64,000 nt of DNA, taken from contig CAJOEC010000002.1 in NCBI GenBank assembly GCA_905233425.1, forward strand, positions 29,000-92,999. The letters are read 5' to 3'. A model generated the notes under the pieces. That model was not told the DNA's origin and did no database searches. It worked only from the letters and a program-made list of their open reading frames with translations. The translations under genes were made by a program, and so were the position numbers. The stretch comes from an uncultured Prevotella sp. GTDB lineage: Bacteria > Bacteroidota > Bacteroidia > Bacteroidales > Bacteroidaceae. Below, one piece after another: positions 1,832 to 64,000 of this stretch; within the stretch, counting starts at the first letter, position 1, and every line of letters starts with the position of its first letter.

Positions 1832-4579
1832 ATGAAGACTTTTGGATATTTCGACGATAAGAACAGGGAATACGTCATCACCGACCCGGCAACACCGTTC
1901 CCATGGATAAACTACTTAGGCAATGAAGATTTCTTCGGACTGATAAGCAACACCGCCGGCGGCTACGACTTCTACAAGGACGCCAAGTTCCGCCGCATCA
2001 CGCGCTATCGCTACAACGGAGTGCCAATGGATGCGGGGGGCAGATACTTCTATATCAAGGAAAGCCCCACCCCCGACCCCTCCCGCGGAGGGGAGGGGAG
2101 TAGTTACTCTGAGCCTTGGAGTCCGGGGTGGAAGCCCTGTAAGACCCCGCTCGACAGTTACGAGTGCCGCCATGGCATGAACTACACCCGCATTACGGGC
2201 AGTAAGAATGGGGTGGAGGCAAGCGTGCTATTCTTCGTGCCGCTGAAGACGTGGGCGGAGGTGCAGAAGCTGACGCTGACGAACAAGAGCGGAGATACGA
2301 AGCGGCTTAAGCTGTTCTCCTTCACGGAGTGGTGCCTCTGGAATGCGGCTACGGACATGGAGAACTTCCAACGCAACTGGTCGACGGGGGAGGTGGAGAT
2401 AGAGAAAGCCCCCCTTTCGCCCCCCGAGGGGGGCACTACACCCTCTGCCACTAAAAGTATAGAAGCCCCCTCGGGGGCCGTAGGGGGGGCTACAACGATT
2501 TACCACAAGACCGAATACAAGGAACGCCGCAACCACTACGCCTACTATGCGCTGACCAATGCCGAGGCGCAGGGCTTCGACACCGATCGCGAGAGCTTCA
2601 TCGGGCTGTATAACGATTTCTCGAACCCGCAGTGCGTCATGGCTGGGAAGCCCAGCAACAGCGTTGCGCATGGGTGGAGCCCCATAGCCTCCCATTACGT
2701 CGAGGTGGAGCTACAGCCAGGAGAAAGCAAGGACTTCATCTTCGTGCTGGGGTACGAGGAGAATGAACAGGAGAAGAAGTTCAGCAGCCCCACCCCCAGC
2801 AGACCCTCCCCCCAGCCCCTCCCTGTGAGGGAGGGGAGTATATACTCTCAAGACGGAAATACAGCAACAGAAGTAACTACTCCCCTCCCTCACAGGGAGG
2901 GGTCGGGGGAGGGTCTTCTTCTTACCTCCCTCGGCTCTCTTGACCACACCATTATTAATAAAGAGAAGGCACATGCCGTCATTTCGCGTTTCTCGACTGT
3001 GGAGGCAGTTGATGCAGCCTTCGCCGAGTTGCGGGCAATGTGGGACGGGCTGCTGTCGAAGTTCACCGTGGAGAGCGGCGACGAGCGGCTCGACAGGATG
3101 GTGAATATCTGGAACCAGTACCAGTGCATGATCACGTTCTGCTTCTCCCGTAGCGCGTCATTCTTCGAGAGTGGCGTGGGGCGTGGCATGGGATTCCGCG
3201 ACTCAAACCAGGACCTTGTGGGCTTCGTCCACCAGATTCCGAGCCGTGCACGGCAGAGGATTATCGACATCGCCTCGACGCAGTTCCCCGACGGCGGTTG
3301 CTACCACCAGTACCAGCCACTGACGAAACGAGGCAACAACGACATCGGCGGAGGGTTCAACGACGACCCCTGCTGGCTCATCTTCGGCACGGTGGCATAT
3401 ATCAAGGAGACGGGCGACTTCTCCATCCTCGACGAGCCGGTGCCCTTCGACAACCAGCCGGGAACAGAGGTGTCGCTCTTTGAGCACCTGCGCATCTCGT
3501 TCAATCACGTCGTAGAGAACCTCGGCCCACATGCGCTGCCGCTCATAGGCCGCGCCGACTGGAACGACTGCCTGAACCTGAACTGCTTCTCATGGGACCC
3601 CAACGAGAGCTTCCAGACGACGGAGAACAACAGTGAAGGTTCGAAAGCCGAGAGCCTCATGATTGCCGGGCTGTTCGTGCTGACAGGGAAGCAGTACGTG
3701 GAGCTGTGCCGGGAGCTGGCTGGTTCGGTACACGGCGGCAATGCCGCCGTCTACAGGACAGAGGCCGACAGAGCACAAGGCTGTATCGACACCATGGTGG
3801 AGGCCGTGAAGAAGCACGGCTGGGACGGTGAGTGGTATCTCCGTGCCTACGACTTCTACGGCAACAAGATTGGAAGCAAGGAATGCGAGGAGGGAAAAAT
3901 CTTCATCGAGAGCCAGGGCTTCTGCACGATGGCAGGAATAGGACTTGAAGAGGGAATGGTCGACAAGGCCCTCGACTCGTGCAAGAAACACCTCGACTGC
4001 GAACACGGCATGGTGCTGAACAATCCCGCCTTCACCCGCTACTATGTGGAGATGGGCGAAATCTCAAGCTATCCAGCAGGCTACAAGGAGAACGCAGGTA
4101 TCTTCTGCCACAACAACCCGTGGGTTATCATCGGCGAGACCGTGGCACGACGTGGCAACGACGCCTGGGAGCACTACACGAAGATCGGCCCCGCGTGGAT
4201 CAAGGACCAGCAGCTGCACAAGGTGGAGCCTTACGTCTACTGTCAGATGGTGGCCGGCAAGGACGCCGCCAAGCCCGGAGAGGGCAAGAACTCATGGCTC
4301 ACCGGCACCGCCGCATGGAACTGGCTGACCATCACCCAGTATATCCTCGGCATTCGGCCTACCTATGACGGACTGGAGATTGACCCCTGCATTCCCTCGA
4401 CGCTGAAGGAATATCGCGTGCACCGCGTCCTCCGCGACGCTGAGTTCGAAATAACGGTGAAGAACCCCGACGGGAAACAGAGCGGGGTGACGAGCGTGAC
4501 CCTCGACGGGAAAACCGTCGAGCGCGGCCGTGCCATAAAGGCAACGCCGGGTAAGCATGTCGTTGAAGTGATAATGTAA
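1832..4579 (+). CDS. GH94 cellobiose/cellodextrin phosphorylase (cytoplasmic), with three in-frame repeat insertions
   Basis: The N-terminus [30 protein letters not shown] and the catalytic-region motif [11 protein letters not shown] match GH94 phosphorylases along the whole length. There is no signal peptide. The ORF is 915 aa versus roughly 810-820 aa for characterised enzymes. Confidence 0.9.
2063..2110. repeat. GC-rich hairpin insertion 1 inside GH94 (solo arm of the MITE-like family)
   Basis: agccccaccccc..CCCCTCC-cgc-GGAGGGG (stem 2077-2083/2087-2093)..gaggggagta..actct. It shares flanking strings with the left arm of the 2801-2917 element and encodes [16 protein letters not shown]. 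Confidence 0.7.
2406..2492. repeat. GC-rich nested-palindrome insertion 2 inside GH94
   Basis: Perfect palindromes GCCCCCCGAGGGGGGC (2419-2434) and GCCCCCTCGGGGGC (2465-2478), bounded by AGCCCCCC (2407) and GGGGGGCT (2484). Encodes [29 protein letters not shown]. Confidence 0.7.
2801..2917. repeat. 117-bp MITE-like element with ~35-nt terminal inverted repeats, in frame inside GH94
   Basis: Left arm agaccctccccccagcccctccctgtgagggagggg (2801-2836). Right arm cccctccctcacagggaggggtcgggggagggtct (2883-2917) is its near-perfect reverse complement. 117 bp equals 39 codons with no stop. Confidence 0.8.
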
Positions 4580-4647: not shown

Positions 4648-7104
4648 TTACAGGATGGTAACCTCGGAGAAATAGTGCTCGCGGAGGGGCTTGTGGACGG
4701 GGTCGCCTTTCAGCGTGACGGTCTGCTCGATGCGGATGTCCTGCGACGAGGCGCCAATCTTGATGACGTACTGGCCTGGGGCGATGTTCCATTGGCGCTG
4801 GCCCTCGTTGCTGTAGTAGCCGAACTGCTCGGTGTACAGTTTTACCTTGACGGTCTTGGACTCTCCGGGCTGTAACGACACGCGGATGAAACCCTGTAGC
4901 TGAATCGGCTTCAGAGGCTGGTCGGGAGATGTGGGTGAGAGATAAATCTGGGCCACCTCGTCGGCAGCGACTGCGCCGGTGTTCTTTATTTGGAAAGAGA
5001 GGGTGATGGCCTCGTCGGTGGCGCAGCCCTCGGCTGATGCCTCGGGAACGGTGGCTGTGCCCTCGGCTGATGCGTCGGGAACGGTGGTGGAAGCCTCAGG
5101 GACGGAATATTCGAAGGTGGTGTAGCTTAGTCCGTAGCCGAAGGGCCAGGCGACGCGTGGGTCTTGCTCAAGGCTGTAGTTATAGCACAGCGGCTCGTAG
5201 ACCTCGGTGTTGGGATAGCTTACGGAGAGCTTGCCCGATGGCGACACCTTGCCGAAGAGGATGTCGGTCACGGCGTTGCCGCCCTCCTCGCCCGGATACC
5301 ATGCCTGTATGACAGCGGCGCAACGCTCGGCAAGGCCGCTGATGACCTGTGCCCTGCCGCCGAATACCACGAGCACCACTGGCTTGCCTGTAGCCAGAAG
5401 CTCCTCGACAAACTCCTGCTGTTTGCCCGGCAGACGCAGACCCTGACGGTCGCGGTTCTCACCACAGAGCATCACATTCTCACCCACGGCTGCGATGATG
5501 ACATCGGCCTGACGTGCCATCTGCAACGCCTCCTTCTTGTCGGCCTTCTCGCCAGAGTCTACCTTACGATGCAGAATCTCGTACTCCCAAGCACGCTCGT
5601 CGCCCAGTTCGCTGAACTTGGTCTCAATCTCCTCAGTCCAGTCACAGCCACGGGAGTACATGAGGTTCACGCCTTCAGGCTTACGGCTCTGCATTCCCTC
5701 TAACAGGGTGACGATGTCGGGATGCTCCAGGTCGTCGGTGACCTTCTTCCAGAAGTAAGTCATGGAAGGGAAGGAGTAGTCGCCGCACATGGCCCACATA
5801 GAGTTGGCGTTAGGGCCGGTGAGGAGGATGTTTAGTGTTGAGGGTTGAGAGTTTAGAGTTGAGGGTTGAGAGTTTAGAGTTGAGGGTTGAGAGTTAAGCG
5901 TTGAGGGTTGAGAGTTGAGCGCAAGAGGCAGTACGCCGTTGTTCTCCAATAACACGATGCTCTGCGTTGCGATGTCGTAGGCAGTCTGCCTTTCCTCAGA
6001 CGTGTCGAGGGTGATGTCCTCTTTGCTGTAAAGGTAGGGGTTCTCATCGAAGAGACCGGCGCGGAATTTCATGCGGAGAACATCCTTGACAGCACGCTCG
6101 AAGGCTTCGGGTTTCACGAGACCCTTGTCGATGGCCTCCTGCAGATGCTGGTAGTTGGCACCGAAGGGGAAGTCGACATCGTTGCCCGCGTTGATTGCGG
6201 CGGCAGCTTTCTCTACAGGAGTGGACAAGTCGGGAATCTGGTCGATGGCCGTGTAGTCGCTGACTACCATGCCGTCGAAACCGATATAGCCGCGAAGAAT
6301 GTCCTGCAGGATTTCGCTGTTGGCCACACACCTCGTTCCATGCACATCGTGATAGCCCGGCATAAGAGCCACGCTGCCTGTCAGGCGTATCATCGCTTCG
6401 TGGGGCAGCAGAATCTCCTCCATCAGTTCCTTCTCGTCGGCATCGCCACCGCCGCCGTAGCCGAGGTAGTGTTTCGAGCAGGCACCCACGCCCTGCTTCA
6501 TGTCGCTCTGTTGCAGTCCCTTTACGAATGCTGTGCCCATGACGGCTGAGAGATAGCCGTCCTCGCCATACGACTCTTCCAGTCGGTTGAACGACGGAGT
6601 GCGGCACACGTCGACCATGGGCGATAGCGACAGTATGCCGCCCATCTTGCGTAAGGCTGTGCTCGTCTGCCGCGTCTTCACCTCGGCCAGTTCGGGATTG
6701 AACGAGCAGGCCTGGCCTATCTGTTGTGGATAGATGGTTGCGCCACGGGTGTCGATGCCCGAGAGCACCTCCTCGTGCATAAGTGCCGGAATGCCACTTG
6801 GCGTGTTCTTCATCAGCCACTGCTGCAAGGCGGCCACGTGGTCGCGCAATGTGTTAGGGTCGCGTGGTTTCTGTAGACAGAACTGCGAGAAATGGCCGAT
6901 GCCGTTTGGAATCAGCTCCCGGCATTTCGCCGTGTCGAGCTTTCCCTCGTCATCGAACAGTTCGTCCATGTACATACTCCTCAGTTGGGCGATGCGCTCC
7001 TCCTGAGTCATCCTTTCATAAAGTTCATTGACCTGCTGTTCCAAGTCGACAGCAGTGTTACAGCCTGTGAAAAGTACCGTCATAACAATCAATAGTTTGT
7101 TCAT
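4648..7104 (-). CDS. GH3 beta-glucosidase (periplasmic), with two in-frame tandem-repeat insertions
   Basis: Signal peptide, GH3 motifs KHYLGYGGGG and nucleophile region GFDGMVVSDY, and a C-terminal Fn3-like domain (GLSYTTFEYS.., ..IKNTG..). Confidence 0.9.
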   Translation of the reverse strand: MNKLLIVMTVLFTGCNTAVDLEQQVNELYERMTQEERIAQLRSMYMDELFDDEGKLDTAKCRELIPNGIGHFSQFCLQKPRDPNTLRDHVAALQQWLMKNTPSGIPALMHEEVLSGIDTRGATIYPQQIGQACSFNPELAEVKTRQTSTALRKMGGILSLSPMVDVCRTPSFNRLEESYGEDGYLSAVMGTAFVKGLQQSDMKQGVGACSKHYLGYGGGGDADEKELMEEILLPHEAMIRLTGSVALMPGYHDVHGTRCVANSEILQDILRGYIGFDGMVVSDYTAIDQIPDLSTPVEKAAAAINAGNDVDFPFGANYQHLQEAIDKGLVKPEAFERAVKDVLRMKFRAGLFDENPYLYSKEDITLDTSEERQTAYDIATQSIVLLENNGVLPLALNSQPSTLNSQPSTLNSQPSTLNSQPSTLNILLTGPNANSMWAMCGDYSFPSMTYFWKKVTDDLEHPDIVTLLEGMQSRKPEGVNLMYSRGCDWTEEIETKFSELGDERAWEYEILHRKVDSGEKADKKEALQMARQADVIIAAVGENVMLCGENRDRQGLRLPGKQQEFVEELLATGKPVVLVVFGGRAQVISGLAERCAAVIQAWYPGEEGGNAVTDILFGKVSPSGKLSVSYPNTEVYEPLCYNYSLEQDPRVAWPFGYGLSYTTFEYSVPEASTTVPDASAEGTATVPEASAEGCATDEAITLSFQIKNTGAVAADEVAQIYLSPTSPDQPLKPIQLQGFIRVSLQPGESKTVKVKLYTEQFGYYSNEGQRQWNIAPGQYVIKIGASSQDIRIEQTVTLKGDPVHKPLREHYFSEVTIL
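5028..5105. repeat. 33-bp tandem repeat x2.3 inside GH3
   Basis: cctcggctgatgcctcgggaacggtggctgtgc / cctcggctgatgcgtcgggaacggtggtggaag / cctcagggacgg. On the gene strand it encodes ..PEASTTVPDASAEGTATVPEASAEG.. Confidence 0.8.
5837..5920. repeat. 21-bp tandem repeat x4 (three RGTTGAG heptamers per unit) inside GH3
   Basis: gttgagggttgagagtttaga x2, then ..gttaagc and ..gttgagc variants. On the gene strand it encodes NSQPSTL x4, between the GH3 N-terminal and C-terminal domains (..NNGVLPLA[..]ILLTGPNAN..). Confidence 0.9.
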
Positions 7105-11500: not shown

Positions 11501-11836
11501 AATGGAGACGGCACATACACGCCCAACTATATCCCCGTGAACCCTGAGTCGTACTGGAAGTCGGCCTCGGAGAACTGTCCGTCGCTGTTCATCTACGACA
11601 ACTCGTATGTTAAGTGCCGCGAGATAACCTTCGGCTACACCTTCCCGGAGAAATGGTTAGGCAAGACCGTAAAGGCTCTCAGCGTCAGCTTCGTAGCCCG
11701 TAACCCGTTCATCGTGTGGAAGAACATCCCCAACATCGACCCCGACTCGGGCTACAACACCAGCGGTCTCGGACTCGAGTACGGCTCGCTGCCCTCGCGT
11801 CGCAGCTATGGTTTCAACGTCAATCTTAAGTTTTAA
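8588..11836 (+). CDS. SusC/RagA-family TonB-dependent outer-membrane transporter
   Basis: Carboxypeptidase-regulatory-like N-domain (ITGVVEDAEGPMIGATVKVVGS..DLNGKFTI), plug region (EVVVTALGVKRDRKALGY, VINSLSGKVAGL), 1082 aa, terminal ..NVNLKF. A SusD-like gene follows. Confidence 0.9.
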   Translation: MIKIKTILCLLFTGMSGMPLMADASSAASALAGGSATHEAAPAPDDQTITGVVEDAEGPMIGATVKVVGSSAGTVTDLNGKFTIRCKPGDMLEVSYVGYTPVKLQAKNGMKIVLAEDKTQLSEVVVTALGVKRDRKALGYGLAEVKGEELTKAKETNVINSLSGKVAGLVVQNTAGGASGSTRVLLRGNTEMTGNNQPLYVIDGVPLDNTNFGAAGVEGGYDLGDGISAINPDDIENMTVLKGPAASALYGSRASHGVILITTKKAEKDKVSVEYNGSLTVDVQNAEWDDIQEVYGMGYSGAYSKTATSGTNSSWGPKADDFLVEYFDHEKRPFLMYPNNTSDFFRTGLTTQNTAILSVNSGKTGVRFSVTDMRNKDILPQTHMSRDNFNLRVTTAAGPVDFDFTANYTREDVKNRPALGDSQSNVGKNLMTLAGTYNQAWLKNYQTAEGEYANWNGNDQYNKNPYWDLYKNENTSAKDVFRLTAKAIWNITDHLKLQGTVGTDMSFMDFEDFIARTTPGKLAGQLLQQKFNNRTLNAELLALYNQSFGDFDINATLGGNIFKVSNHTDIFTGLDQQMKDVIAIMNYAEQSIQQNQYRKQINSIYGSASVGYQHTYYLEATVRGDKSSTLPINNNVYVYPSFSGSVVFSEFIKNKSLINYGKVRASWAQVGSDTDPYQLALNYSTAKYSYGGFVIGMINNTTTPNKDLKPTRTNSFELGLEMKFFNGRLGLDFTYYNQLSKDQIIGLASSSTSGYNYRLVNAGEIENKGIEVTLNGRVLQIKDFAWDAGVNFSKNKNKVKSLVEGMDYFELEKATWCGVSVGAEVGKNYGSIIGKDYVRNEKGEVIINTDSGLPMTDDKTHTLGNASWDWTGGFYSTFTYKNFRLSAGFDVKVGADLFSMSMRSAYATGKASETLEGREEYYLSQEKRRELNMSNDEWNENIKTLLALEPDDQKRVEMGKTYGYVVPGVIDNGDGTYTPNYIPVNPESYWKSASENCPSLFIYDNSYVKCREITFGYTFPEKWLGKTVKALSVSFVARNPFIVWKNIPNIDPDSGYNTSGLGLEYGSLPSRRSYGFNVNLKF

Positions 11837-11866
11837 TTAGCAATTAGTAATTAGAAATTAGTAATT
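11834..11866. repeat. Heptamer microsatellite (NAATTAG x4.7) forming the whole SusC-SusD spacer
   Basis: taattag caattag taattag aaattag taatt, then ATG. The first unit contains the SusC stop codon TAA (11834-11836). Confidence 0.75.
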
Positions 11867-13666
11867 ATGATTACCAAATATCTGCATAATAGAGTTGTAG
11901 GACTATTCTACTTATTACTTTTCTCCTCAACTCCTTTACTCCATCAGAGTTGCAGCGACAGCTATATGGAGGAGATGAACACCGACGACACGAAAGCCGA
12001 GTCGATAGACCCCAGCGCACAGCTCACCACCGCCCTGCTACAGACTTACGGCGACTTCGGATTCATGGACACCTATCGCTCGTACATCACAGGCTTTACC
12101 CAGCACTTTGCCGGGGGATGGAACGTCTCGAACTATGCCGGCGACGTGCACCCGCAGGACGACCAGATGCGCCTCGTCTGGGACCAGTTCTACTCCGTAG
12201 GCATTAAGAACCTTGTCGACGCCATCGCCAACAGCGCACCCGCCGACGCCGCCACAGTGTCCGAAGCGTTAGCTTCCGGCTCCAAACCCAACACCAACGC
12301 CGCCCTCCGCATCCACCGCGTTTACATGATGAACATCCTCACCGACATCTACGGCGATATCCCCTGCATGGACGCTGGCAAGGGCTACACCGATGGCATC
12401 TCCACCCCTAAGTACGACAAGCAGGAGGACATCTACAACTTCTTCTTCGACGAACTCGCCGCCTGCGCCGAGCAGCTAACCGTTGGTGCCGACGTCATCG
12501 GCGGCGACGTGACCAGCCTCGGCGGCGACCCAGCCGCCTGGAAGCGCTACGCCAACACCCTCCGTCTGCGCTATGCCATGCGCATCAGCGACGTGAACCC
12601 CGCGAAGGCCAAGGAGGAGTTTGAAAAGGCACTCAACGCCGACGGCGGCATCATCGAGAACGCCGAGCAGGATGCCTACATCATCTACACCGACGGCCCC
12701 TTCACACTCTACGACGGCTCACGCGACCTCGATTTCCGTGTGAACGCCCTTGGAGAGATTCTCTACGGTCAGGATCCCACCTCGCCCACGTTTGTTTGCT
12801 CCACGCTCTATGACATCCTGAAAGCATACGACGACCCGCGTCTCTACCGCATCTGCCGCCACTACATCAACACCAAGCGTGCCGAGGTGAAGCCCGACCG
12901 CGAGTGGAACGTTGATGTGACCGACGAGGTGAGGCGTTATCTGGAGCGCACCAACACCTACACTCCCTGCGTTCCCGGCGCAGCATGGTGGAGCGACTGG
13001 GTGAACGCCCCGGCCAACAGCGAGATACCGACACTTGAGAAGCTCGTCGCACAGTACCCTGAGGCCGGCTTCGACCAGAACAACTTCAACGCCCGCATGT
13101 TGCGCCCCTTCCTGAGCATCGACTTCGAGATGCCCGACTGTCCCGGTGCCCTTATCAACTCTGCCGAGGTGGAGTTTCTGCTCGCCGAGGCAAAGCTGAA
13201 GGGCTGGAACGTCCCCGGCACCGTGGAGGAGCACTTCCATGCTGGCATCCGCGCTGCTATGCACTGGCTTAATGACCACTATCTGCAGAGCAAGGACAAG
13301 ATTTCCGAAAGCGAGATAGATGCATACATTTGGGTGTTTACCGACGGCCCATTGTTCACTACCGCCAACGCCAAGGAGGCCATCAACACACAGGCATGGA
13401 TCCTCCACCTGATGAACCCCTCGGAGGCATGGGCCAACCTACGCCGCTCTGACTATCCCGTCATAGCCGACCGCACCAAGCTGCCCACGCGCCCCGACTT
13501 CCCCAACGACGAGCCAGACAAGCGGACACCTACACGCCTCCGCTATCCCATCCTTGAGAACCAGTACAATAGCGCCAACTATCAAGAGGCCCTCGACCGC
13601 CTCGGCGGTAGCGACGACTGGCACCACCGCCTCTGGTGGGACGTGGCAGACATTAACGTCAAGTAG
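11867..13666 (+). CDS. SusD/RagB-family nutrient-binding outer-membrane lipoprotein
   Basis: Lipoprotein signal (..PLLHQSC). A ~600-aa helical protein immediately downstream of the SusC-like gene. Confidence 0.85.
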   Translation: MITKYLHNRVVGLFYLLLFSSTPLLHQSCSDSYMEEMNTDDTKAESIDPSAQLTTALLQTYGDFGFMDTYRSYITGFTQHFAGGWNVSNYAGDVHPQDDQMRLVWDQFYSVGIKNLVDAIANSAPADAATVSEALASGSKPNTNAALRIHRVYMMNILTDIYGDIPCMDAGKGYTDGISTPKYDKQEDIYNFFFDELAACAEQLTVGADVIGGDVTSLGGDPAAWKRYANTLRLRYAMRISDVNPAKAKEEFEKALNADGGIIENAEQDAYIIYTDGPFTLYDGSRDLDFRVNALGEILYGQDPTSPTFVCSTLYDILKAYDDPRLYRICRHYINTKRAEVKPDREWNVDVTDEVRRYLERTNTYTPCVPGAAWWSDWVNAPANSEIPTLEKLVAQYPEAGFDQNNFNARMLRPFLSIDFEMPDCPGALINSAEVEFLLAEAKLKGWNVPGTVEEHFHAGIRAAMHWLNDHYLQSKDKISESEIDAYIWVFTDGPLFTTANAKEAINTQAWILHLMNPSEAWANLRRSDYPVIADRTKLPTRPDFPNDEPDKRTPTRLRYPILENQYNSANYQEALDRLGGSDDWHHRLWWDVADINVK

Positions 13667-13748: not shown

Positions 13749-14762
13749 ATGAAAACCAAGAATATTTTCAAATCTCTCGCCCTGATTTGTTCCGTATGTT
13801 GCGGTTTAGCTGCAACAACCGCCTGCTCCAGCAACGATGATCCCTTCTTCACGGCAACTGAGGACGATGCCCCGCGCATCCTGAATACCGACATTCCCGA
13901 GGGCACAGGCGGCAATCCGGGTGTCATCAAGACCATCTCGCGTACCGAGAACTTCACATTCGAGGTGATGGTCACCCCCGTCCACTTCACCACCGTAACA
14001 TGGTTCATCGACGACGTTCAGGTGGCCGAGGGTCTCAAAATCGACGTGCCCGTGAAGACGGGCAGTCACACCCTGAAAATCGTGGCCACGACTACTAAGG
14101 GCCTCTCCACCTCACGCACTTGTACGCTTGTCGTATTGCCCGTTGATGACGACCCCGTGCCTGGCGACGACATCTACGACCGCCTCGTCAAGCCCGGCAC
14201 CAAGGCCAAGCTCCACGGCGCTTACATGTCGAAGGTCGTGAAGGTCATTATCGGCAGCGCCGCCGTCAGCGCTACCTACAACGCCGACGAAGACTGTGTG
14301 GAGTACACCGTCCCCGAACTTCCCGACGGTGTTTATCCCTTGCAGGTGGCCGATGCCGATGGCAACATCTTTGATGCCGGACAAATCGAGCTGAACGCAA
14401 ATCCCGAGTACCCCGATGTAAGCAAAGAGACCACCCTCTGGGAAGGTTCTTTCAACGTCGCATGGGATAATCCCTTCAAGGAACTCCAGAAGGAACTCAT
14501 TAACCACGTGAAGGCCGGCACCATCCTCCGCGCCTACGTCACAGGCTCAGGCCAGGGTGCTGCCACTACCGCATGGTGGCGTAACATCCTCACCGGTGTC
14601 TCCGAGGACGACGTGCCCGGCGGTCGTGGCGACATTATGATTAACGGCGACGCTGTTTTGGAGTACACCCTCATCGACCAGTCCATCTCCCTCCTGAAGG
14701 CCCAGGACGGTTTCCTCATGGTCGGCAATGGCTACACCCTCAAAAAGATTACGGTGGAATAG
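13749..14762 (+). CDS. PUL-encoded surface lipoprotein, putative SusE/F-like glycan-binding protein
   Basis: Lipobox LAATTAC. A beta-rich 337-aa protein in the position usually held by surface glycan-binding proteins. No catalytic motif recognised. Confidence 0.5.
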   Translation: MKTKNIFKSLALICSVCCGLAATTACSSNDDPFFTATEDDAPRILNTDIPEGTGGNPGVIKTISRTENFTFEVMVTPVHFTTVTWFIDDVQVAEGLKIDVPVKTGSHTLKIVATTTKGLSTSRTCTLVVLPVDDDPVPGDDIYDRLVKPGTKAKLHGAYMSKVVKVIIGSAAVSATYNADEDCVEYTVPELPDGVYPLQVADADGNIFDAGQIELNANPEYPDVSKETTLWEGSFNVAWDNPFKELQKELINHVKAGTILRAYVTGSGQGAATTAWWRNILTGVSEDDVPGGRGDIMINGDAVLEYTLIDQSISLLKAQDGFLMVGNGYTLKKITVE

Positions 14763-14770
14763 GCAAATCA

Positions 14771-22335: not shown

Positions 22336-23310
22336 TTAGTCGCGATAGAACCAAGAGAAGATGCGGTTTATCCAGCCTATAGAGCATTGGAACCATCGGT
22401 AGGTGCTGGTGGGCTTACCGCCGAAGCGGAGGATAAACTCTCGGAACTTGTTTTTCTGGAACGGCAGTCCCACGTCCATGAAGAAGATGTGCTCACAGCC
22501 CTGCTCGTATGAGGTTTTTATGGCGTGCCAGATGGTGAGCACATCGGGGCTGAGCCACACGAAAGTCTTTCTTCTGTAGGCAGCATACCACAGGTAGGCC
22601 TGCCCCTGGCTGTATGCCACCGCCGAGCAGCCCACCACTCGTCCTCGGTAGCGTGTCAGGAACAGCCGTCCGTTCTCCTTGTGGAGACGGCGGAAGAACT
22701 CTTCTGCAGGTATGAAGCGCTTTGGCTTCATCCAGTTGTGGTGGCGCAAAAGTTTGTGGAAGGCATGCAAATCGGCATCGTCTTTCACCTCGTCGGTCAC
22801 GATGCCACGTTGGTATGCAAGGTTGATGCGCTGCTGCAGACGCTCGCTGATGCGCTCCTCAGGAGTTCGTGAGTGGAGTGAGTTGTGTATGCTCATCCAC
22901 CTGACGGGGAAATAATTGTTTTCGCGGAACTGCTTGTAACCGGCCATCTTCGTCGAGAGGTTGCTGAACTCGGTGTAGAGAATCCATCGCCCCAGCTTCT
23001 CAGTAAGTGCCTTCAGCATAAGCCCGAAAAGCTCGTAGCGTGGGCTTTCATCGTCATAGACACCCTCGCCATGCACGCGGCAGTGGCGGTAGAGATAGGG
23101 CGGCAGCCACGACGAGCGGTAGCGGACAACGGCAACCATCTGTCCCACGACGATGCCCTTGGCGGTCTCTGCTGTCACAAGGTACGGCTTTTGGCGCGGA
23201 GTGGCATGGCACAGCTCGAAGAACTGGGGGCTGTGGAAGAAATTGTCAGTACGCAAACTGTCGGGAAACGTACATGGCTGTGTGTATATGTGTACCGTGA
23301 ACTGGGGCAT
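22336..23310 (-). CDS. FemAB/GNAT-like (Acetyltransf_6-type) acyl- or aminoacyl-transferase, cytoplasmic
   Basis: Start set at MPQFTVHIY.. (ATG 23310), because the track ORF extension overlaps the upstream gene. The call rests on overall resemblance to FemAB-like GNAT proteins (..YLWYAAY.., ..FILRFGGKP..), from recall only. Confidence 0.45.
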   Translation of the reverse strand: MPQFTVHIYTQPCTFPDSLRTDNFFHSPQFFELCHATPRQKPYLVTAETAKGIVVGQMVAVVRYRSSWLPPYLYRHCRVHGEGVYDDESPRYELFGLMLKALTEKLGRWILYTEFSNLSTKMAGYKQFRENNYFPVRWMSIHNSLHSRTPEERISERLQQRINLAYQRGIVTDEVKDDADLHAFHKLLRHHNWMKPKRFIPAEEFFRRLHKENGRLFLTRYRGRVVGCSAVAYSQGQAYLWYAAYRRKTFVWLSPDVLTIWHAIKTSYEQGCEHIFFMDVGLPFQKNKFREFILRFGGKPTSTYRWFQCSIGWINRIFSWFYRD

Positions 23311-23349
23311 TGAGAGTTGAGGGTTGAGGGTTGAGATTTGAGAGTTTAG
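23311..23349. repeat. (RGTTGAG)5 heptamer array forming the whole spacer between two operon genes
   Basis: tgag agttgag ggttgag ggttgag atttgag agtttag. It contains the stop codon (23346-23348) of the upstream beta-barrel gene and abuts start codon 23310. Confidence 0.85.
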
Positions 23350-25104: not shown

Positions 25105-26352
25105 TTATCTTCTTGACATGATTGTTATCACTGTTGAAATGTCGGCCACGTCGACGGTGCCGTCGCCATTGACGTCTGCGGAGATGGTGTCGAGAGTTGA
25201 GGGTTGTGAGTTGAGTGATGCCATGACGCTGATAATGGCCGAGATGTCGGCGACATCAACGACACCATCTACATTGACATCGCCTTTCACAGGCTCCACA
25301 ACCTGTGGGTGATAGTCGCGCAGCGAGCAGCGCAAACGCTCGTGGAAGTCGTTTCTCGAGTCGTTCCAGTCGCGGTAGACAATGTGCGCACCCTTCAGTA
25401 TGCTCTCCTCGGCGTCGATGCCCGACGGGTCGGTGCTGCCGTCGGTGCCCAATGAGTAGTTATAGACAAGTTTGCCCTTGTTCTCGGCCAATGCCTCGGT
25501 CATCTCCTTGTCAACGTTGCGGTAGAGCGAGTGCCCCAGCCTGTTAGTCAGACAGACATATCCGGCGTCGATGTCGGCTGTGAGCCGCTTCTTGCAGCTC
25601 TCTATCTTCGCTCCGTTGAACACCTCCACGCCGTCGATGATCCATTCCACGGGCACCATGACGTTGGCATTGATGGCATCGTGGGCCTCGCCGGGGGCAT
25701 ACCAGAGGTTGTCGGGATTGTTGCCGAAATCGACTGGCGAAACGTCCTCTGTACAGAAGAGGAACAGTGCCGGCGACGTTGTGCTCAGGGGCCATGAGTT
25801 GGCCTGTCCGTACTTCACGGCCTTGAGATAGTGGGTGTCAGGGATAACGTCTGACGGGGTGGGGTAGTACATGGTGTTGAAGTAGCCGCTCTCAGGGTCG
25901 TACATGCAATAGTACTCCTTGAAGGCGTAGTTCACCGACTGCGAGTAGGTCTTGGTGTTGTCGATGGCCCCATGAACATTGACAACGACCTGCTGGAACG
26001 GCTCGATGACGAGCGTCGAGGGGAAATACCAGATGCCGTTCCGGGCGGGGATGAAACCTTCGTCTTCGTAGACCAGAATGCCTTCCCTGTCGTAGATTCT
26101 GTCTATGCTGTTTGCCTCGGCGTTGTAGGGGGTGGCAAATCCTAAGCAGAGGTTTGTCGCCACCACCAGTTCGGGGCAGTTGTTGTAGAGCACAATGCTC
26201 TTGTCCATGTGGAAGACGTCGCTGCCCTCGTCTTTCGGACATCCGCCACAATAGATTTCCTTGATGACTATCTGGTCGGCGTTCTGGTCGGTCTGAGCCC
26301 CTGCATGGACGGTTGACAATAAACAAGCGATAAACAATAAAATCTGTTTCAT
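25105..26352 (-). CDS. Secreted DUF4876-like protein with C-terminal dockerin-type double Ca-binding repeat
   Basis: Signal peptide. C-terminus GDVNVDGVVDVADISAIISVM..ADVNGDGTVDVADISTVITIM fits the duplicated dockerin DxNxDGxxxxxD F-hand pattern. The N-terminal family call is from recall. Confidence 0.55.
   Translation of the reverse strand: MKQILLFIACLLSTVHAGAQTDQNADQIVIKEIYCGGCPKDEGSDVFHMDKSIVLYNNCPELVVATNLCLGFATPYNAEANSIDRIYDREGILVYEDEGFIPARNGIWYFPSTLVIEPFQQVVVNVHGAIDNTKTYSQSVNYAFKEYYCMYDPESGYFNTMYYPTPSDVIPDTHYLKAVKYGQANSWPLSTTSPALFLFCTEDVSPVDFGNNPDNLWYAPGEAHDAINANVMVPVEWIIDGVEVFNGAKIESCKKRLTADIDAGYVCLTNRLGHSLYRNVDKEMTEALAENKGKLVYNYSLGTDGSTDPSGIDAEESILKGAHIVYRDWNDSRNDFHERLRCSLRDYHPQVVEPVKGDVNVDGVVDVADISAIISVMASLNSQPSTLDTISADVNGDGTVDVADISTVITIMSRR
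25195..25215. repeat. Three RGTTGAG-type heptamers (21 bp) between the two dockerin repeats
   Basis: agttgag ggttgtg agttgag. On the gene strand it encodes ..LNSQPST.. Confidence 0.6.
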
Positions 26353-26365: not shown

Positions 26366-26755
26366 TTAATGTACTACTCTTTTGCGTGACGATTTCAGTG
26401 TGATGTCAGCGTGGTTGGTGCTGTCGGGGTCTACGATGATCATGCTCTTTACTCCGTTGAAGTTGTATCGCCACCAAGTCGCGGTAGTGCTGTCGAGGAA
26501 CTGCGCGGTGGAGCTGGCCTCGTAGATGCCGGGCGTGACGGTGAAGCGTGTTGTGCCGTTAGCGTCGGTGGAATCGACGAAGATGGCGTTGCGGCCAATG
26601 CTACGCAGCTCCACGCGGGCGCCGGCGTACGGCTCAATGGTGTTCTCCGGGTATTGCAGCTGCACGGTGAGGGTGCAGAGGTCGAGCTCCTCGGAATAGG
26701 AACAGGAGGTAAGCACCGTAAGGCATATTGTCTTTATTATTGAGGTGGCTTTCAT
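26366..26755 (-). CDS. Small lipoprotein with carboxypeptidase-regulatory/Ig-like beta-sandwich
   Basis: Start MKATSIIKTICLTVLTSC (lipobox) at 26755, overlapping the upstream receptor stop by 4 nt (ATGA). ..GARVELRS..TDANGTTRFTVTPGIYE.. resembles CarboxypepD_reg-type folds. Confidence 0.55.
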   Translation of the reverse strand: MKATSIIKTICLTVLTSCSYSEELDLCTLTVQLQYPENTIEPYAGARVELRSIGRNAIFVDSTDANGTTRFTVTPGIYEASSTAQFLDSTTATWWRYNFNGVKSMIIVDPDSTNHADITLKSSRKRVVH

Positions 26756-29700
26756 ATCTTCAGTCTCAGTGACAGTCCGTAGTAATAGCTTGGTATGTAG
26801 CTGCTGCCGAACAGCGATGTCTCGAGGTCGGTCTGCGAGGAGTGCACGCGGCGCATGTTGTTGAAGAAGTTGTTGGCGTAGAACGAGATGCTGATGTGGT
26901 CGCCAATCTCTTTTGTCACGCTCATGTTGGCGGAGTAATATGCGGAGAGACGGTTGGGGTTCATGGTGTAGGCATAGTTCGACCGTACAATGAGCTGTGA
27001 GAGGTCGCTGTAGAGCTTTTTGTCGTTGTCCTTTGCGGCGATGAAGGCCTCGGCGAAGGGTATCAGCTCCGTGGGGTTCTCCCATGTGGAGTAGTATTCG
27101 GGCCAGACCACTACGAACTTGTTTTCCGTCACGCCATCGTAGGGACTCGCTGCGTCAATTCCGTTGAGGTCAGCGTCATCCTTGTTGTCGAGCATGATGC
27201 CTCGTGGCGAACCGTCGGTCTGCTGGCTCAGCGAGCGGCGGAAGCTGTAGAGTGTCGACTCTATGCGCAGGGCAACTATGAGGCGAATCTTAGGTATGTG
27301 TGTCGTCACGGTGGCGTTCAGATTCAACTGCTTCGACAGTGTGCCATTGCTCACCGATGCCGAGGCGCTGCTTCCCGCTGTGGTGACGCTTGTTCCGCGA
27401 TAGTAGCCGATGTACTGGAAGGGCTGTCCGCTGCTTGTCACATTGCTGATGCCCAAGGGCACATCGGCGAAGAACGTGTCGTCGGTGCTCTTGTAGCGGT
27501 AGTAGTTGCCGTCTATGCGCAGCTGAGTGCGAAGGGCCTTTATCTGAGCGAAATCGACAATCCACTCCAGACCGTAGCGTGAGAGCGGCGTGGCGTTGGT
27601 GTAGTGCTGGTTCACCACGTATGTGTGCTTATCTGTGTACTGTAGGGGCAGGCCCTGTGCCAGCCCGCCATCCACAGAATATACGTACACCGTTCCTGTC
27701 TCGTGGTCGATGGTGAAGACGCGGTCGGCCACTGGTATTCCGCTCTGCTGGGCTGCCGACGGGGCTGTGTAGCGGTAGGAGAATGGAGTGTAGTTCTTCT
27801 CGGCCATATACGAGTCGTGGGTCTTGTGGTGGAATGCGGAAAGACTCACGTGCGAACCTTTTATATTAAACTCCACGCCGACGTCCCACTGGTTAGTGTG
27901 CTGCCAGCGCAACGACGGGTTGTACTGTGATTGCGAAGGGTAGGTGTGGTAGGCGTAGTAAGAGACGTTGTCGGCGGTCGATGTCGAGGCGAACACCTGC
28001 AGGTCGCTGTATGCCGGACGTGGGTATAGTACCTGGAACGACGGCAGTTTCACGCTCTTGCCCCATCCGGCATGAAACTCCAAGTCGCTGACTACTCGCT
28101 TGCGTTGTCCGCGCCAGAATATGAGCCGGCCGTTGAATCGTGGCGACAGACTGCTCACCGTGCCGTAGGTTGAGCCGCTGATCATCGTGATGTCGTCGCG
28201 AAGGCCTGCTGTGAGTTCAAATGACCCATTTTTACTGCCTGTGGATGAGCGTGAGGATTGTTTTCTTAGTGGTATGATGATTTTGTCTTCCGCATAAAGT
28301 GCGAGGTTGTGCATCGTCGGCAGCTTGTCGTAGCGGTATTCGCGCCATGTGGGCGCCACGCTGATGTCCTCGTAGTATGTGCCGCGACCGTTGTTACGGG
28401 AGGCGTTGTACTGGGCGCCAATCGCAAAACGATTGGCCACGCTGCCGAAACGGCGGTTACTCTCACCCTTCAGTTTCACGCTCCACGACATTGGCTTCGA
28501 GTCATTGTAGCTGCGCACGTACCAGTAGCCGGTGGGGCTGAGTATGACAGCCCCAGCAGACCCACCCCCTGCCATATTATATCCCAGCTCCGTGGCGTGA
28601 ATGTATGGCTGTGTGGAGGCACTGCTGGTGTGGGCGTATGTCTCCTGCTTTCGGTCCTGGAAAGAGAAGGAAGCCGAAAGGCGCAGGTTGGTGATGAAAG
28701 GCTTGTTAAGCAGCCATTGCATGTCGAGTGTAGAGCGCAGGGCGTTGTCGCGTGCTTTCGTGTAGTCGTCAAGTTCCTCGTCGGGGTCGGCCTCGCTGTT
28801 ATATCCTCCGATGTTGCCTGTGAGACCGACGTTTAGTGTCAGTGGCATCGTTTGCTTGAAGAATACGTTCATGTAGTGAAGCGAGAAAATGTTGCGTTGG
28901 TAGGCGGTATGGGGCGATGCCGCGTCGGAAAAAGAGTGGGCGTGCTCGAAAGAAGTGTTGAGAACACCGAGTGAGGAGCGATGGGTGTTGGGTGTTGAGT
29001 GTTGAGTGAGGTCGAAACCTTTGCTGACGGCTATCTGCCGGGTGTGCTGGTTTATGCTTCCCTCCACGATGAATGGAGATTTTCCTCGCCGTGTCTGCAC
29101 TTTCACTATTCCGTTACTCAGGTCGCCGTATTCCACTGATGGGATGCCAGTTACCACCTCAACACTCTCCACGTTGCTTGTGCTGATGGTGCGTGTCGAT
29201 GCGCCCGTGGTCTCGTCGGAGGCAGCGTTGTTGTCCATACGCATTCCGTCCACTTCTATTGCCGTGCCAAAGGAGGCATTGCCCTTCTCCTGGTGTCCGC
29301 TGCGCAGGGCCAATCGTGTGTCGTTCATCAGCGAGGGGTTCACGGTTTTGCCGCCGGGCAGTAGTGTGGCAATGTCGGCAACATTGATTATCTGTTGCTG
29401 GTCGAGTGTCGTGCGGTCGATGGTGTAGCTTGTCGTCGCCTCATCCTGCTTGCGCCGTGCCGTGACGGTCACCTCGTCGAGCTTCAGATTGCCCGCATTG
29501 AGTTTGAACTTCAGGTTGTCGATGTTGCGCTCCACGCTTATCGGCCACGAGCGTTTCTGGTAGCCCAGACACTGCACCGTGAACGTGTTCTTACCACGTG
29601 GCACGCCATTGATGGTGAACTCGCCTTTTGCACCCGTCACCGCCCACAGCCCGCTCTCTGAGAGCAGCACCGAGGCGAACTCCACGGGCTGGTTAGTGTC

Positions 29701-29823
29701 GGCATCGACCACGGTGCCCTGTATCTGAAAAAGCGCACTGGCCCTCCCCGGCTTATCGTCGGCATGGAGGGCCAGGGCTGCGCATAGTAGCACAAGTGAC
29801 AATATGTGTCGGCTGCCTTTCAA
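26752..29823 (-). CDS. TonB-dependent receptor with N-terminal carboxypeptidase-regulatory-like domain
   Basis: Signal peptide, QIQGTVVDADTNQPVEFASVLL.. domain, plug and a ~800-aa barrel. The only possible start is TTG at 29821-29823, directly after in-frame TAG and the upstream gene's TAA. Confidence 0.85.
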   Translation of the reverse strand: MKGSRHILSLVLLCAALALHADDKPGRASALFQIQGTVVDADTNQPVEFASVLLSESGLWAVTGAKGEFTINGVPRGKNTFTVQCLGYQKRSWPISVERNIDNLKFKLNAGNLKLDEVTVTARRKQDEATTSYTIDRTTLDQQQIINVADIATLLPGGKTVNPSLMNDTRLALRSGHQEKGNASFGTAIEVDGMRMDNNAASDETTGASTRTISTSNVESVEVVTGIPSVEYGDLSNGIVKVQTRRGKSPFIVEGSINQHTRQIAVSKGFDLTQHSTPNTHRSSLGVLNTSFEHAHSFSDAASPHTAYQRNIFSLHYMNVFFKQTMPLTLNVGLTGNIGGYNSEADPDEELDDYTKARDNALRSTLDMQWLLNKPFITNLRLSASFSFQDRKQETYAHTSSASTQPYIHATELGYNMAGGGSAGAVILSPTGYWYVRSYNDSKPMSWSVKLKGESNRRFGSVANRFAIGAQYNASRNNGRGTYYEDISVAPTWREYRYDKLPTMHNLALYAEDKIIIPLRKQSSRSSTGSKNGSFELTAGLRDDITMISGSTYGTVSSLSPRFNGRLIFWRGQRKRVVSDLEFHAGWGKSVKLPSFQVLYPRPAYSDLQVFASTSTADNVSYYAYHTYPSQSQYNPSLRWQHTNQWDVGVEFNIKGSHVSLSAFHHKTHDSYMAEKNYTPFSYRYTAPSAAQQSGIPVADRVFTIDHETGTVYVYSVDGGLAQGLPLQYTDKHTYVVNQHYTNATPLSRYGLEWIVDFAQIKALRTQLRIDGNYYRYKSTDDTFFADVPLGISNVTSSGQPFQYIGYYRGTSVTTAGSSASASVSNGTLSKQLNLNATVTTHIPKIRLIVALRIESTLYSFRRSLSQQTDGSPRGIMLDNKDDADLNGIDAASPYDGVTENKFVVVWPEYYSTWENPTELIPFAEAFIAAKDNDKKLYSDLSQLIVRSNYAYTMNPNRLSAYYSANMSVTKEIGDHISISFYANNFFNNMRRVHSSQTDLETSLFGSSYIPSYYYGLSLRLKI
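28985..29010. repeat. GTGTTGA heptamer run (x3.7) inside the TonB-dependent receptor
   Basis: gtgttgg gtgttga gtgttga gtgag. On the gene strand it encodes ..LTQHSTPNTH.. Confidence 0.6.
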
Positions 29824-62278: not shown

Positions 62279-64000
62279 TTAACGGTAGACGTCTTCCTTT
62301 TTCAACTCCACCACTTTGCCAAAGCGGGCGAGGGCTTTCATGTCGGTGAGTTTCCTGTCGCCGATGACAATCCAGACACGGTGCGGGTTGTCGCCGATGT
62401 GCTGGCGATGGAACTGCACGATGTCCTGTGTGGTGACGGCGGGCAGCTGTCGGGCGATGTCGGCATTGGGGTCGGCGGTGTAGCCCTCCCTCAACTGGTT
62501 GGCCACATATTTTGACATTGTGCGGAAGGTGGGGTAGCTGTTCTGTATGTCGTTGAGCACGCTCTGGCGGGCGGCATCGAGGTTTTCCTCCTTCATGGGC
62601 ATCTGGCGCAGCAGCGAGTCGATGGTGGCGATGGCCTCCAGCGTCTTGTCGGCCTGTGTGCCGGTGGCGGTGACGTATGCCTGTGGCTCTGAGGCATGAA
62701 GGGCGAGACTGGTGGAGTAGCTATGGCCATTAGTGGAATAGGCCAGCGAGCGGAACTCACGGACATTCTGGAAAAGCACCGACGACATGCCGCCACCGAA
62801 GTATTCGTCCCAAAGCTTGAACCGGGCGCGCTGCTCTGCCGTGGGCAGGGGACTGACGGCATCGTAGCTGACGACATAGTTCTGGCGCGACTTGGGCACG
62901 TGGAAGAAATAGACCGTAGGCTCCGTGTACTGCTGGAGGGGACGGAATGTGTCGGCCTGTGGCTTGGTGCACAGGGCGAGGGGCAGCGTTTGTTGCGACT
63001 GAGTCGCAACATACTCGACGGGATGGCGGCCGCAGTAGAACAGCTCGCAGTCGTACTGTTGCAGCTCATGGAAAAGGGCGAGCAGGTCGTCGTTCTTCAG
63101 GGCTTTCACCTCTTTCTTGCTCAGTTGGAGGTAGGAGGACTTCTGACCGTAGAGGATGCGGTGCAGCACGGGTTTCAGCACGTCGTCCTTCATCTTGCCG
63201 AAGCTCTTGCGGTCCACCTTGTCGGCATCCTTGGCGTCTTTGAGGGCATCATTGTCACCCTTTGCGGCACGCAGGAAATGGGCCAGCAGCTGTAGGGCGG
63301 GCTTCAGTTCGCTGTCGGGGCCTGTGAGGTTGATGCTGAAGGCCACGTCGCCGGGAACGATTTCCATTGTGGTGCCGATGCGCTGCCAGGCTCTCTCCAA
63401 CTGCTGCTTGGTCAGCGAGTCGGTGCCGAGCTGCGACAGATAGGGTGCCAGAATGTTCAGCGCGGGCGTGTGCAGGTTACCATCCTTATAGCGGATGGTG
63501 AAGGTGAAAATATCGTTGACGGGATTCTTCTTGTAGTAGAGGGTGGGACTTATAGGTCTTATAGGACTTATGGGTCTTATAGGACTTATAGGACCTATAG
63601 GAAGGACCGTCACGTCGTGGTCGAAGTCTACGGTGCGGACTGCCGTCTGCTCCACCAGCATCTGCTCCAACTGCTTTGCGAAGGCCGATTTCGCATCGGT
63701 GTTCTTCGGACTGATGGGCTTGTAGCCTGGCTGCTTCAGCGTTTCCTTGTTGGGTGTGCCGTATTTCTTCGTCAGCTTGATGTAGTTGGCACCGTAGTAT
63801 TTCTTGGCCGCAGCCACCACGTCGGCCTTCGTCAGTCGGCGGATACCCTCGATCTTGTCGAGCACGTCCTGCCACGTGCGGCCTTTCGAGAAGGCATCCA
63901 CCAGCGTCTGTGCACGGCTGCTGATGGTCTCTATCTCCTGTTCGGCCTCCATCACCATCTCTCGCTTCAGCGCCTCCACCTGCTGGTCGCTGAAGTTGCC
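62279..64000 (-). CDS. M16 (pitrilysin/insulinase) family peptidase, C-terminal ~570 aa (5' end beyond window)
   Basis: The frame stays open to nt 64000, and the track start at 63979 is an internal GTG. Contains the M16 C-terminal-half motif FGGGMSSVLFQNVREFRSLAYS. Confidence 0.8.
   Translation of the reverse strand, partial: GNFSDQQVEALKREMVMEAEQEIETISSRAQTLVDAFSKGRTWQDVLDKIEGIRRLTKADVVAAAKKYYGANYIKLTKKYGTPNKETLKQPGYKPISPKNTDAKSAFAKQLEQMLVEQTAVRTVDFDHDVTVLPIGPISPIRPISPIRPISPTLYYKKNPVNDIFTFTIRYKDGNLHTPALNILAPYLSQLGTDSLTKQQLERAWQRIGTTMEIVPGDVAFSINLTGPDSELKPALQLLAHFLRAAKGDNDALKDAKDADKVDRKSFGKMKDDVLKPVLHRILYGQKSSYLQLSKKEVKALKNDDLLALFHELQQYDCELFYCGRHPVEYVATQSQQTLPLALCTKPQADTFRPLQQYTEPTVYFFHVPKSRQNYVVSYDAVSPLPTAEQRARFKLWDEYFGGGMSSVLFQNVREFRSLAYSTNGHSYSTSLALHASEPQAYVTATGTQADKTLEAIATIDSLLRQMPMKEENLDAARQSVLNDIQNSYPTFRTMSKYVANQLREGYTADPNADIARQLPAVTTQDIVQFHRQHIGDNPHRVWIVIGDRKLTDMKALARFGKVVELKKEDVYR
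63546..63601. repeat. Six YATAAGTCY-family 9-mers (reverse orientation) in frame inside the M16 peptidase gene
   Basis: ggacttata ggtcttata ggacttatg ggtcttata ggacttata ggacctata. On the gene strand it encodes PIGPISPIRPISPIRPISP. Confidence 0.85.

Follow-up and report, generated by a model that had tools for sequence, protein, structure and literature searches.

A run of 13 tandem heptamers lies in frame within a glycoside hydrolase gene of family 3 (GH3) on contig CAJOEC010000002.1 of an uncultured Prevotella sp. The stretch analyzed here comprises 64 kb of this contig and is called the window; all coordinates are window positions. The array is probably an in-frame 21-bp minisatellite that was derived from a short heptanucleotide array and persists as a tolerated, near-neutral insertion in a loop of the enzyme. 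The feature is real, but of a kind already known: bacterial heptamer repeats of this class are very widespread and have been little studied. The gene and its array are as follows.

4648..7104, minus strand: GH3 glycoside hydrolase gene, host of the array; 818 amino acids (aa), with the Pfam domains GH3_N (residues 35-344), GH3_C (383-661) and Fn3-like (716-787)
5830..5920, minus strand: main array; 13 heptamers, or ~4.3 copies of a 21-bp unit, coding for A-(LNSQPST)x4-LN

Anatomy of the array

The array is 91 bases long, with the unit GTTGAGN on the plus strand and CTCAACN on the coding strand. Heptamers were counted with at most one mismatch allowed in the core. The plus strand starts at 5830 with GTTTAGT GTTGAGG GTTGAGA GTTTAGA GTTGAGG GTTGAGA GTTTAGA and continues to 5920 with GTTGAGG GTTGAGA GTTAAGC GTTGAGG GTTGAGA GTTGAGC. 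Tandem Repeats Finder (TRF) describes this DNA both as 4.1 copies of period 21 (5830-5916, 95% matches) and as 11.9 copies of period 7 (5837-5919, 81% matches). Self-identity amounts to 79.8% at a shift of 7 nt, 79.2% at 14 nt and 94.3% at 21 nt, and the longest perfect tract measures 59 nt for period 21 (5837-5895) and 13 nt for period 7. Neighboring heptamers always differ. A first-pass annotation of this DNA had described twelve heptamers, organized as four 21-bp units, at 5837-5920; the 21-bp organization stands, and with the counting rule used here the array has 13 heptamers and the extent given above. Its broader statement that a heptamer-derived repeat has expanded in frame within the GH3 gene is borne out by the TRF results, the 818-aa open reading frame (ORF) and the fourfold LNSQPST peptide.

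The pair pattern GTTGAGRGTTGAG, searched with at most one mismatch, has 19 matches in the window vs. 0.14 expected. The array can be classified as a long heptanucleotide simple sequence repeat (SSR), with at least three 7-nt units standing head to tail beyond chance and at several loci, and equally as an in-frame minisatellite, with a period that is a multiple of three, 94-95% identity between units and an intact ORF. A G-quadruplex repeat (at least four G3 tracts with loops of at most 7 nt) was rejected for 5830-5920, since GGG occurs only in each third heptamer, at 21-nt spacing. Scans of the 64-kb window with Rfam, at the gathering threshold, and for tRNAs gave no matches.

Every third heptamer of the array has diverged to CTAAAC or CTTAAC, which places TAA in the other two frames. 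When 7 nt are removed or added in silico, translation stops near residue 405-407; when 21 nt are removed, an intact protein of 811 aa results. The 21-bp super-period, together with the stops that follow a change of 7 nt, marks the array as a heptamer-derived, in-frame 21-bp variable number tandem repeat (VNTR) and not as a phase switch of the type found in neuO of Escherichia coli. The super-period also points to recent growth in frame-preserving steps. The first-pass annotation called the repeat slippage-prone; slippage in heptamer steps is unlikely in this array in view of the 13-nt limit of perfect period-7 tracts.

A neuO-type ON/OFF switch, in which slippage of a single heptamer would shift the frame and reversibly silence the GH3 gene, would fit the heptameric unit and the position of the gene within a glycan-utilization region with SusC/SusD-like genes. 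Also, rotation of the neuO unit, AAGACTC, gives CTCAAGA, which differs from CTCAACA by one base. Such a switch is nonetheless very improbable here. Adjacent heptamers are never identical and lack a long perfect period-7 tract, the units are organized in 21-bp blocks, and the array is located mid-gene (residue 395 of 818), away from the 5' end. Moreover, out-of-frame alleles were found in none of the best 120 of 4990 homologs, all of which come from outside the species of the window.

The host gene and the site of insertion

All three GH3 domains are recognized by Pfam in the host protein (PF00933, 3.7e-46; PF01915, 1.8e-44; PF14310, 1.8e-16). Among solved structures, it is best matched by the beta-xylosidase 7zb3 (4e-125) and the beta-glucosidase 5xxl, and, to judge from sequence, beta-glucosidase may be only one possible specificity. 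Around the array, the translation reads NNGVLPL-A-(LNSQPST)x4-LN-ILLTGPNAN. The array had originally been placed at the linker between the catalytic barrel and the alpha/beta sandwich. However, this linker comprises residues 345-382, and the array, residues 395-424, begins 12 residues into GH3_C, where it occupies the first loop of that domain, i.e., the turn after the first strand of the alpha/beta sandwich. The equivalent turn in 7zb3, LPL-QKNKK-VALIGPN, has 5 residues. Structure prediction from a 16-sequence alignment gave a mean predicted local distance difference test (pLDDT) score of 46.8, and the model was unusable.

The same gene contains a second in-frame tandem repeat at 5016-5087 (33 bp x2.2, 89% matches). 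It doubles the peptide TVPEASAEG within TVPDASAEGTATVPEASAEGCAT, just ahead of the Fn3-like domain, and is found in none of the 15 aligned orthologs. Other GH3 orthologs have short repeat-like inserts at other loops, such as VPLSLPEGEAW in P0003 (columns 323-330) and NAIKSQTSNPNSQ in P0027 (516-525). Colonization in frame by short repeats may be frequent in rumen genomes of this Prevotella-like type.

Loop length among orthologs

Homologs of the GH3 protein numbered 4990 at E <= 1e-50, and the best 120 of these, which are 74-82% identical according to the BLASTP table and mostly 777-779 aa long, were compared. The loop was defined as the segment between G(V/I)LP(L/I) and (I/V)L(L/V)TGPN. It was readable in 119 of the 120 sequences and ranges from 5 to 32 aa, distributed as follows.

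5 aa, K(D/N)xKN: 77/119 sequences
6 aa: 1/119
8 aa: 23/119
10-11 aa: 11/119
15 aa: 2/119
19, 23, 24, 31 (the window) and 32 aa: 1/119 each

All loops longer than 11 aa, except the 23-aa loop of P0057, are heptamer-derived (LNxQxST or PLTSHxS). Examples of heptamer-type loops are TLNAQHSTLHPQPSTLNTQPSTLN, LSTLNPQHSTFTPQPSTLN, SLNLKDTSNINPSTSSLNPQPSSLNAQPSSLN and GTNLSPLTSPPSPLN, and an 11-aa loop, SPLTSHPSPLN, is of the heptamer type too. The DNA that encodes P0118 (locus L120) reads [CTCAACN CTCAACN CTCCACG]x3 + CTCAAC and, hence, has an independent 21-bp super-period of its own; the closest relative, L121, has a degenerate four-unit array of the CTCACCT type. In a tree calculated with the loop masked, heptamer-type loops are scattered and adjoin sisters with a 5-aa loop. 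That loop length varies among intact orthologs, as was anticipated in the first-pass annotation, is thus confirmed over the full range given above, and the variation proceeds partly in 7-aa steps: the loop of P0118 has 24 aa vs. 10 aa in its sister P0102, a difference of 14 aa or 2x21 nt. Loci L124 and L125 are 96.2% identical at the DNA level, but one has a four-unit array, (ACACCCA)x3+TCACCCA, where the other has the short loop AAAAATGCCAAAAAC. Identity between them dips locally near the loop, which suggests that an allele was imported by recombination. Unrelated inserts are found in the same loop in P0057, P0121, and P0122. The site is a permissive turn at which heptamer arrays have been gained, lost or exchanged repeatedly.

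Such variation might also be adaptive. In that case, the number of 7-aa units would be kept variable, as at a contingency locus, and loop length would tune the activity, oligomerization or surface presentation of the GH3 enzyme. This possibility draws on the spread of loop lengths among intact orthologs, in which long versions arose or were imported repeatedly, and on the 59-nt perfect period-21 tract, which should be mutable. In addition, the catalytic activity of NeuO rises with more in-frame heptad repeats, according to work cited in PMC13001214. However, the 5-aa turn is retained in 77 of the 119 orthologs, and the unrelated inserts in the loop are what is expected of a merely permissive site. 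Furthermore, the motif also recurs between genes and, in frame, in housekeeping proteins that are unrelated (see below), and its sequence is, therefore, not specific to the GH3 enzyme. Nothing specific favors adaptive tuning, and an adaptive locus is quite unlikely.

An artifact of assembly or sequencing, i.e., a collapsed or chimeric repeat in a metagenome-derived contig, is hardly credible, even if the related loci are mostly on contigs of metagenome-assembled genomes (MAGs) and De Bruijn unitigs (k=31) break inside the array. The ORF is intact and in frame, and the exact 818-aa protein was reported on three contigs. Orthologs from independent studies have diverged arrays at this very codon position, the motif exists in isolate genomes (see below), and a 146-nt contig in run X1 extends over the left flank and 83 nt of the array with no gap.

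Other copies in the window

Three further copies of the heptamer array are present in the window.

23309..23349, minus strand: 6-unit array (5.9 copies by TRF); CTCAACN on the strand of both flanking genes
25189..25215, minus strand: 4-unit copy in ORF 25105..26352, within a type I dockerin, in the linker that joins its two calcium-binding repeats
28985..29008, minus strand: 3.4-unit variant in a TonB-dependent receptor (ORF 26752..29823); GTGTTGA, or TCAACAC on the coding strand

The array at 23309-23349 fills the 34 nt that separate the stop codon (23346-23348) of a DUF6850 gene from the probable ATG (23311-23309) of a GNAT gene. The 25189-25215 copy encodes ASLNSQPSTLDT / SLNSQPSTL, and the variant at 28985-29008 encodes LTQHSTPNTH, between the plug and the barrel of the receptor. 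All three copies have CTCAACN on the gene strand. Their existence had been noticed before, but unit counts and coordinates are corrected here. The earlier argument for frame-preserving selection, i.e., that coding copies had 12 and 3 units vs. 5 in the intergenic one, is weak: it concerns three loci, and the counts depend on the rule applied (13, 4, and 6 with at most one mismatch). A multiple-of-three pattern is, besides, close to a tautology, because any intact gene must hold an in-frame length.

A different heptamer, TTAGNAA, is present four times at 11834-11867, where it exactly fills the interval from the stop codon (11834-11836) of a SusC-like gene to the ATG (11867) of a SusD-like gene. 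It is another four-unit heptamer element that adjoins a start codon.

The CTCAACN family beyond the window

The claim that the family is dispersed is well founded, both by the four loci in the window and by very many loci in rumen metagenomes. The public runs that best matched a 1-kb query around the GH3 array came nearly all from bovine or other gut metagenomes and contained at most 31% of its sampled words; run X16, which carries an organism name as its label, is likewise a mixture. With the GH94 relatives from Prevotella sp. (see below), the origin of these runs marks the organism as a Prevotella-like member of the Bacteroidales from the rumen. Contigs of four rumen metagenomes reached ~50 times the depth of the flanks over the array, and the loose ends were heterogeneous and unrelated; together, this indicates that the motif is present at very many loci. 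An exact scan of the junction between flank and array against JGI metagenome contigs gave 19 matches, all of them unrelated chance matches. When 185,579 species genomes were scanned for exact matches to GTTGAGNGTTGAGNGTTGAG, at least 119 loci were found, where ~17 would be expected by chance in the whole collection according to our own estimate (596 Gb, 18 specified bases), and at least 120 loci of the motif were found in a collection of viral contigs. A manual tally of titles among the matches listed gave ~41 Bacteroidota, ~27 Verrucomicrobiota/Kiritimatiellia/PVC and 15 Planctomycetota, and the remaining phyla include Chloroflexota, Acidobacteriota, Gemmatimonadota, Fibrobacterota, Cyanobacteria, and Proteobacteria. 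The motif is also present in the isolate genomes of Prevotella koreensis KCOM 3155 and Moorena producens 3L. At one locus of the former strain (L030, 1864001-1872000), CTCAACG-type arrays (RSTLNAQRST) recur at ~1.52-kb spacing, within a 135-nt direct repeat that is present in three copies.

In 883 kb of sequence comprising the window and the genome loci, a sample chosen for one array per locus, arrays of period 7 numbered 319 vs. 54 of period 6 and 67 of period 8. CTCAACN accounts for 149 of the 319. A control pattern, GTGAGTN x3 (core ACTCACN), was found at 98 viral loci, which shows that CTCAACN is prominent, yet only one of several abundant heptamer families.

The strand that carries GTTGAG contains TGA in every frame within three units, whereas the CTCAACN strand is open in all three frames. 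Consequently, arrays within genes are strongly biased toward the sense orientation, with sense:antisense ratios of 64:2 for the genome loci and 54:1 for the viral loci among the matches listed. In-frame inserts of 9-10 aa were found in AlaRS, Mfd, UvrD, alpha-2-macroglobulin, CotH, a GT2 glycosyltransferase, a histidine kinase and another GH3 protein; in conserved proteins, such inserts often lie between Pfam domains. Public protein collections also contain short 'hypothetical proteins', P0128-P0134, that consist largely of LNPQPST/LNSQLST repeats and that look like spurious ORFs through stop-free heptamer arrays. When the 85-aa loop region of the GH3 protein was searched as a fragment, it yielded just short ORFs, namely pieces of GH3 genes and spurious repeat peptides, and no further orthologs. 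The peptide words LNSQLST, LNPQPST, STLNPQP, and STLNSQL did not occur in the literature searched.

A preference for four units

At the 239 other loci listed, four units prevail by far, within genes and outside. Perfect-core runs of three, four, five and six units numbered 137, 132, 6, and 7, respectively, and most of the three-unit perfect runs have a fourth unit with one mismatch. Perfect CTCAACN runs almost never exceed four units, and the motif is present in Bacteroidota, Verrucomicrobiota, Planctomycetota, other phyla and viral contigs. The arrays end sharply, and, apart from a C at position -2, there is no relation between their flanks. The peak at four units persists whether the seventh base is T, C or A. 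Taken at large, the family is a multicopy four-unit element that is both intra- and intergenic; the copy at 25189-25215 has this form, and the GH3 array, with 13 units, is an expanded derivative.

A test for frame-preserving lengths of coding arrays, as predicted from the first reading of the window, came out differently in the two data sets. In the genome loci listed, 4.x copies are present in 42 of 66 arrays inside genes vs. 24 of 84 outside (p=3e-5), and arrays outside genes reach 20 units. The viral loci listed give no significant contrast (32 of 55 inside vs. 61 of 124 outside). As the four-unit mode is found both inside and outside genes, unit number is not set by frame selection alone. 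Thus, frame selection trims the unit distribution in genes, and the four-unit mode needs more than that.

What else is needed could be a specific mechanism that makes or keeps (CTCAACN)4 as a discrete element of 27-30 nt. The element would then not be a product of slippage; it would colonize conserved genes in frame as a frame-independent linker cassette, and the GH3 array would be a secondary 21-bp expansion of one such insertion. The mechanism might consist in the binding of a protein, in a non-B structure or in templated synthesis during repair. This reading is possible, although on balance rather unlikely.

The arrays could also be nucleic-acid elements in the first place, i.e., a binding site of a protein, a non-B structure of the DNA or RNA or a small element that propagates, with the peptide as a by-product and the GH3 array as an overgrown copy. 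The discrete four-unit form, with its sharp edges, unrelated flanks and a peak that persists inside and outside genes and for each of the three seventh bases, would agree with this idea, as would the presence of the motif in many phyla and viral contigs and the precedent of four-unit heptamer elements in Geobacter and Xanthomonas. Also, sense intergenic copies tend to adjoin start codons, like the TAACTGA repeats of Beggiatoaceae; this proximity, however, rests on a crude gene caller. At the listed loci, neither conserved flanks nor target duplications nor an associated gene turned up. Variants with T as the seventh base lack any GG and cannot form a canonical G-quadruplex, and within the GH3 array GGG tracts stand at intervals of 21 nt. 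No Rfam match was obtained anywhere in the window, and the GH3 copy has 13 units, not 4. A primary role as nucleic acid is, therefore, unlikely.

Origin of the GH3 array

The anatomy of the array, the comparison of orthologs and the properties of the family are observations; the minisatellite origin that probably underlies them would have taken the following course. The seed would have been a four-unit heptamer element of the kind that this genome and many other bacterial genomes commonly contain, and the short array would have settled in the first loop of the GH3 alpha/beta-sandwich domain, which is permissive. Since no frame of CTCAACN contains a stop codon, three heptamers are read as L-N / x-Q / x-S-T, which yields a polar, proline-containing peptide. 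Three neighboring heptamers diverged into CTCAACT, CTCAACC, and CT[AT]AAC[TG], after which the diverged 21-bp trimer underwent about fourfold amplification, presumably by slippage or unequal recombination. Present-day changes in length would occur in 21-bp steps, with the gain or loss of one LNSQPST, whilst changes of 7 bp would be disfavored mechanistically and lethal to the gene. The insert is probably a disordered, polar, proline-containing surface loop that is near-neutral, and no device for tuning the enzyme.

Four points weigh against this course of events. The sharp preference for four units, in genes or not, is unlike simple slippage and hints at a function or a generating mechanism. 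The first in-frame origin of a multi-unit array without frameshifted intermediates is left unexplained. The exact 818-aa protein is the sole member of its 90% cluster, and lengths were compared between orthologs only. Finally, the description of the insert as a disordered loop at the surface is derived from the alignment to 7zb3 and from the composition of the peptide.

For the GH3 gene itself, the array is of little consequence: it would be a tolerated low-complexity loop and, if polymorphic, a marker for strain typing. Of wider interest is one stop-free heptamer that recurs, in frame and as a sharp four-unit element, among the housekeeping proteins of many phyla and also in viral contigs. 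The heptamer excess in bacteria and the four-unit preference are left unexplained in PMC4692102 and PMC2700814, and the CTCAACN motif offers a large natural data set for models of slippage, selection and structure. It also calls for caution in annotation and assembly, as arrays of this type yield spurious 'hypothetical proteins' of the LNSQLST type and break short-read assemblies.

Other repeats in the window

A GH94 cellobiose-phosphorylase-like gene (1832..4579, plus strand), whose closest named relatives are from Prevotella sp., contains three GC-rich palindromic in-frame inserts at 2067-2131, 2407-2491, and 2809-2909. In two of these, the arms measure 35 nt (80% complementary) and 38 nt (89%). 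Peptides encoded by the inserts, which include PLPVREGS..., are present or absent among orthologs of 790-939 aa, and in P0141 the same ~28-aa element is found at three different sites of one gene. The inserts look like a small mobile palindromic element that inserts in frame. Palindromic elements of Rickettsia insert in frame as well, and the GH94 inserts resemble them in this respect. A literature search on palindromic inserts of the GH94 type found no paper.

A nonamer family, GTCTCATAA/GTCCTATAA, forms 14 repeats (18-bp super-period x7) at 31280-31406, between two ORFs on the plus strand. Its reverse complement is present in ~6 repeats at 63546-63602 within ORF 62279..63979 (minus strand), where it would read PIGPISPIRPISPIRPISP. 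At 14764-14851, just past the stop codon of ORF 13749..14762, there are four 22-bp units, each of which surrounds the near-palindrome TTCCC(C/A)CCGG(T/G)GGGAA, and one of the four copies has a complementary variant.

Comparison with known systems

One close comparison is neuO, the O-acetyltransferase gene of the CUS-3 prophage in E. coli K1, which has a heptanucleotide VNTR of the unit AAGACTC in its coding region, where three phases are read (PMC13001214). Its perfect tracts of 3 to 53 units lie at the 5' end and switch expression ON and OFF by slippage of single units, with 65.6% of complete genomes in the OFF state (PMC13001214). The GH3 array likewise is a coding heptamer repeat in which three units give one 7-aa peptide repeat and in which the full-length protein is obtained only if the frame is kept. 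In contrast to neuO, adjacent units differ, amplification is by 21 bp, TAA stops close the other frames, and the array is located mid-gene.

Geobacter metallireducens contains 49 elements of four tandem GGGACCG heptamers, located within and between genes and of unknown function (PMC2700814). The CTCAACN family has the same discrete four-unit form and is also both intra- and intergenic. However, the Geobacter sequence is a different one and the family is confined to one genus, and the GH3 array deviates from it with its 13 units and 21-bp super-period. The GGGAATC repeats of Xanthomonas, too, prefer four units, and they are intergenic G-quadruplex formers (PMC4692102). Together with GGGGA(C/T)T of Nostoc, they form G-quadruplexes, are mostly intergenic and show under-representation within coding sequences, whereas CTCAACN arrays are frequent within genes and most of their variants lack G-runs.

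Direct TAACTGA repeats have been described in marine Beggiatoaceae, cyanobacteria and some Bacteroidetes, many of them directly upstream of start codons and in forward orientation (PMC4679880). These repeats and the short tandemly repeated repetitive (STRR) heptamers of cyanobacteria share with the CTCAACN family a patchy spread across phyla, and the arrays at 23309-23349 and 11834-11867 also abut start codons. TAACTGA differs in that it contains stop codons, is almost wholly intergenic and has no in-frame coding role. Finally, heptamer SSRs are over-represented in bacterial genomes, as far as Mrazek et al. (2007) are cited on this point in PMC4692102; their survey is not known to describe the CTCAACN motif or its use in frame. 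The predominance of period 7 in the 883-kb sample (319 arrays vs. 54 and 67, with one array per locus chosen) resembles this general excess of long heptamer SSRs.

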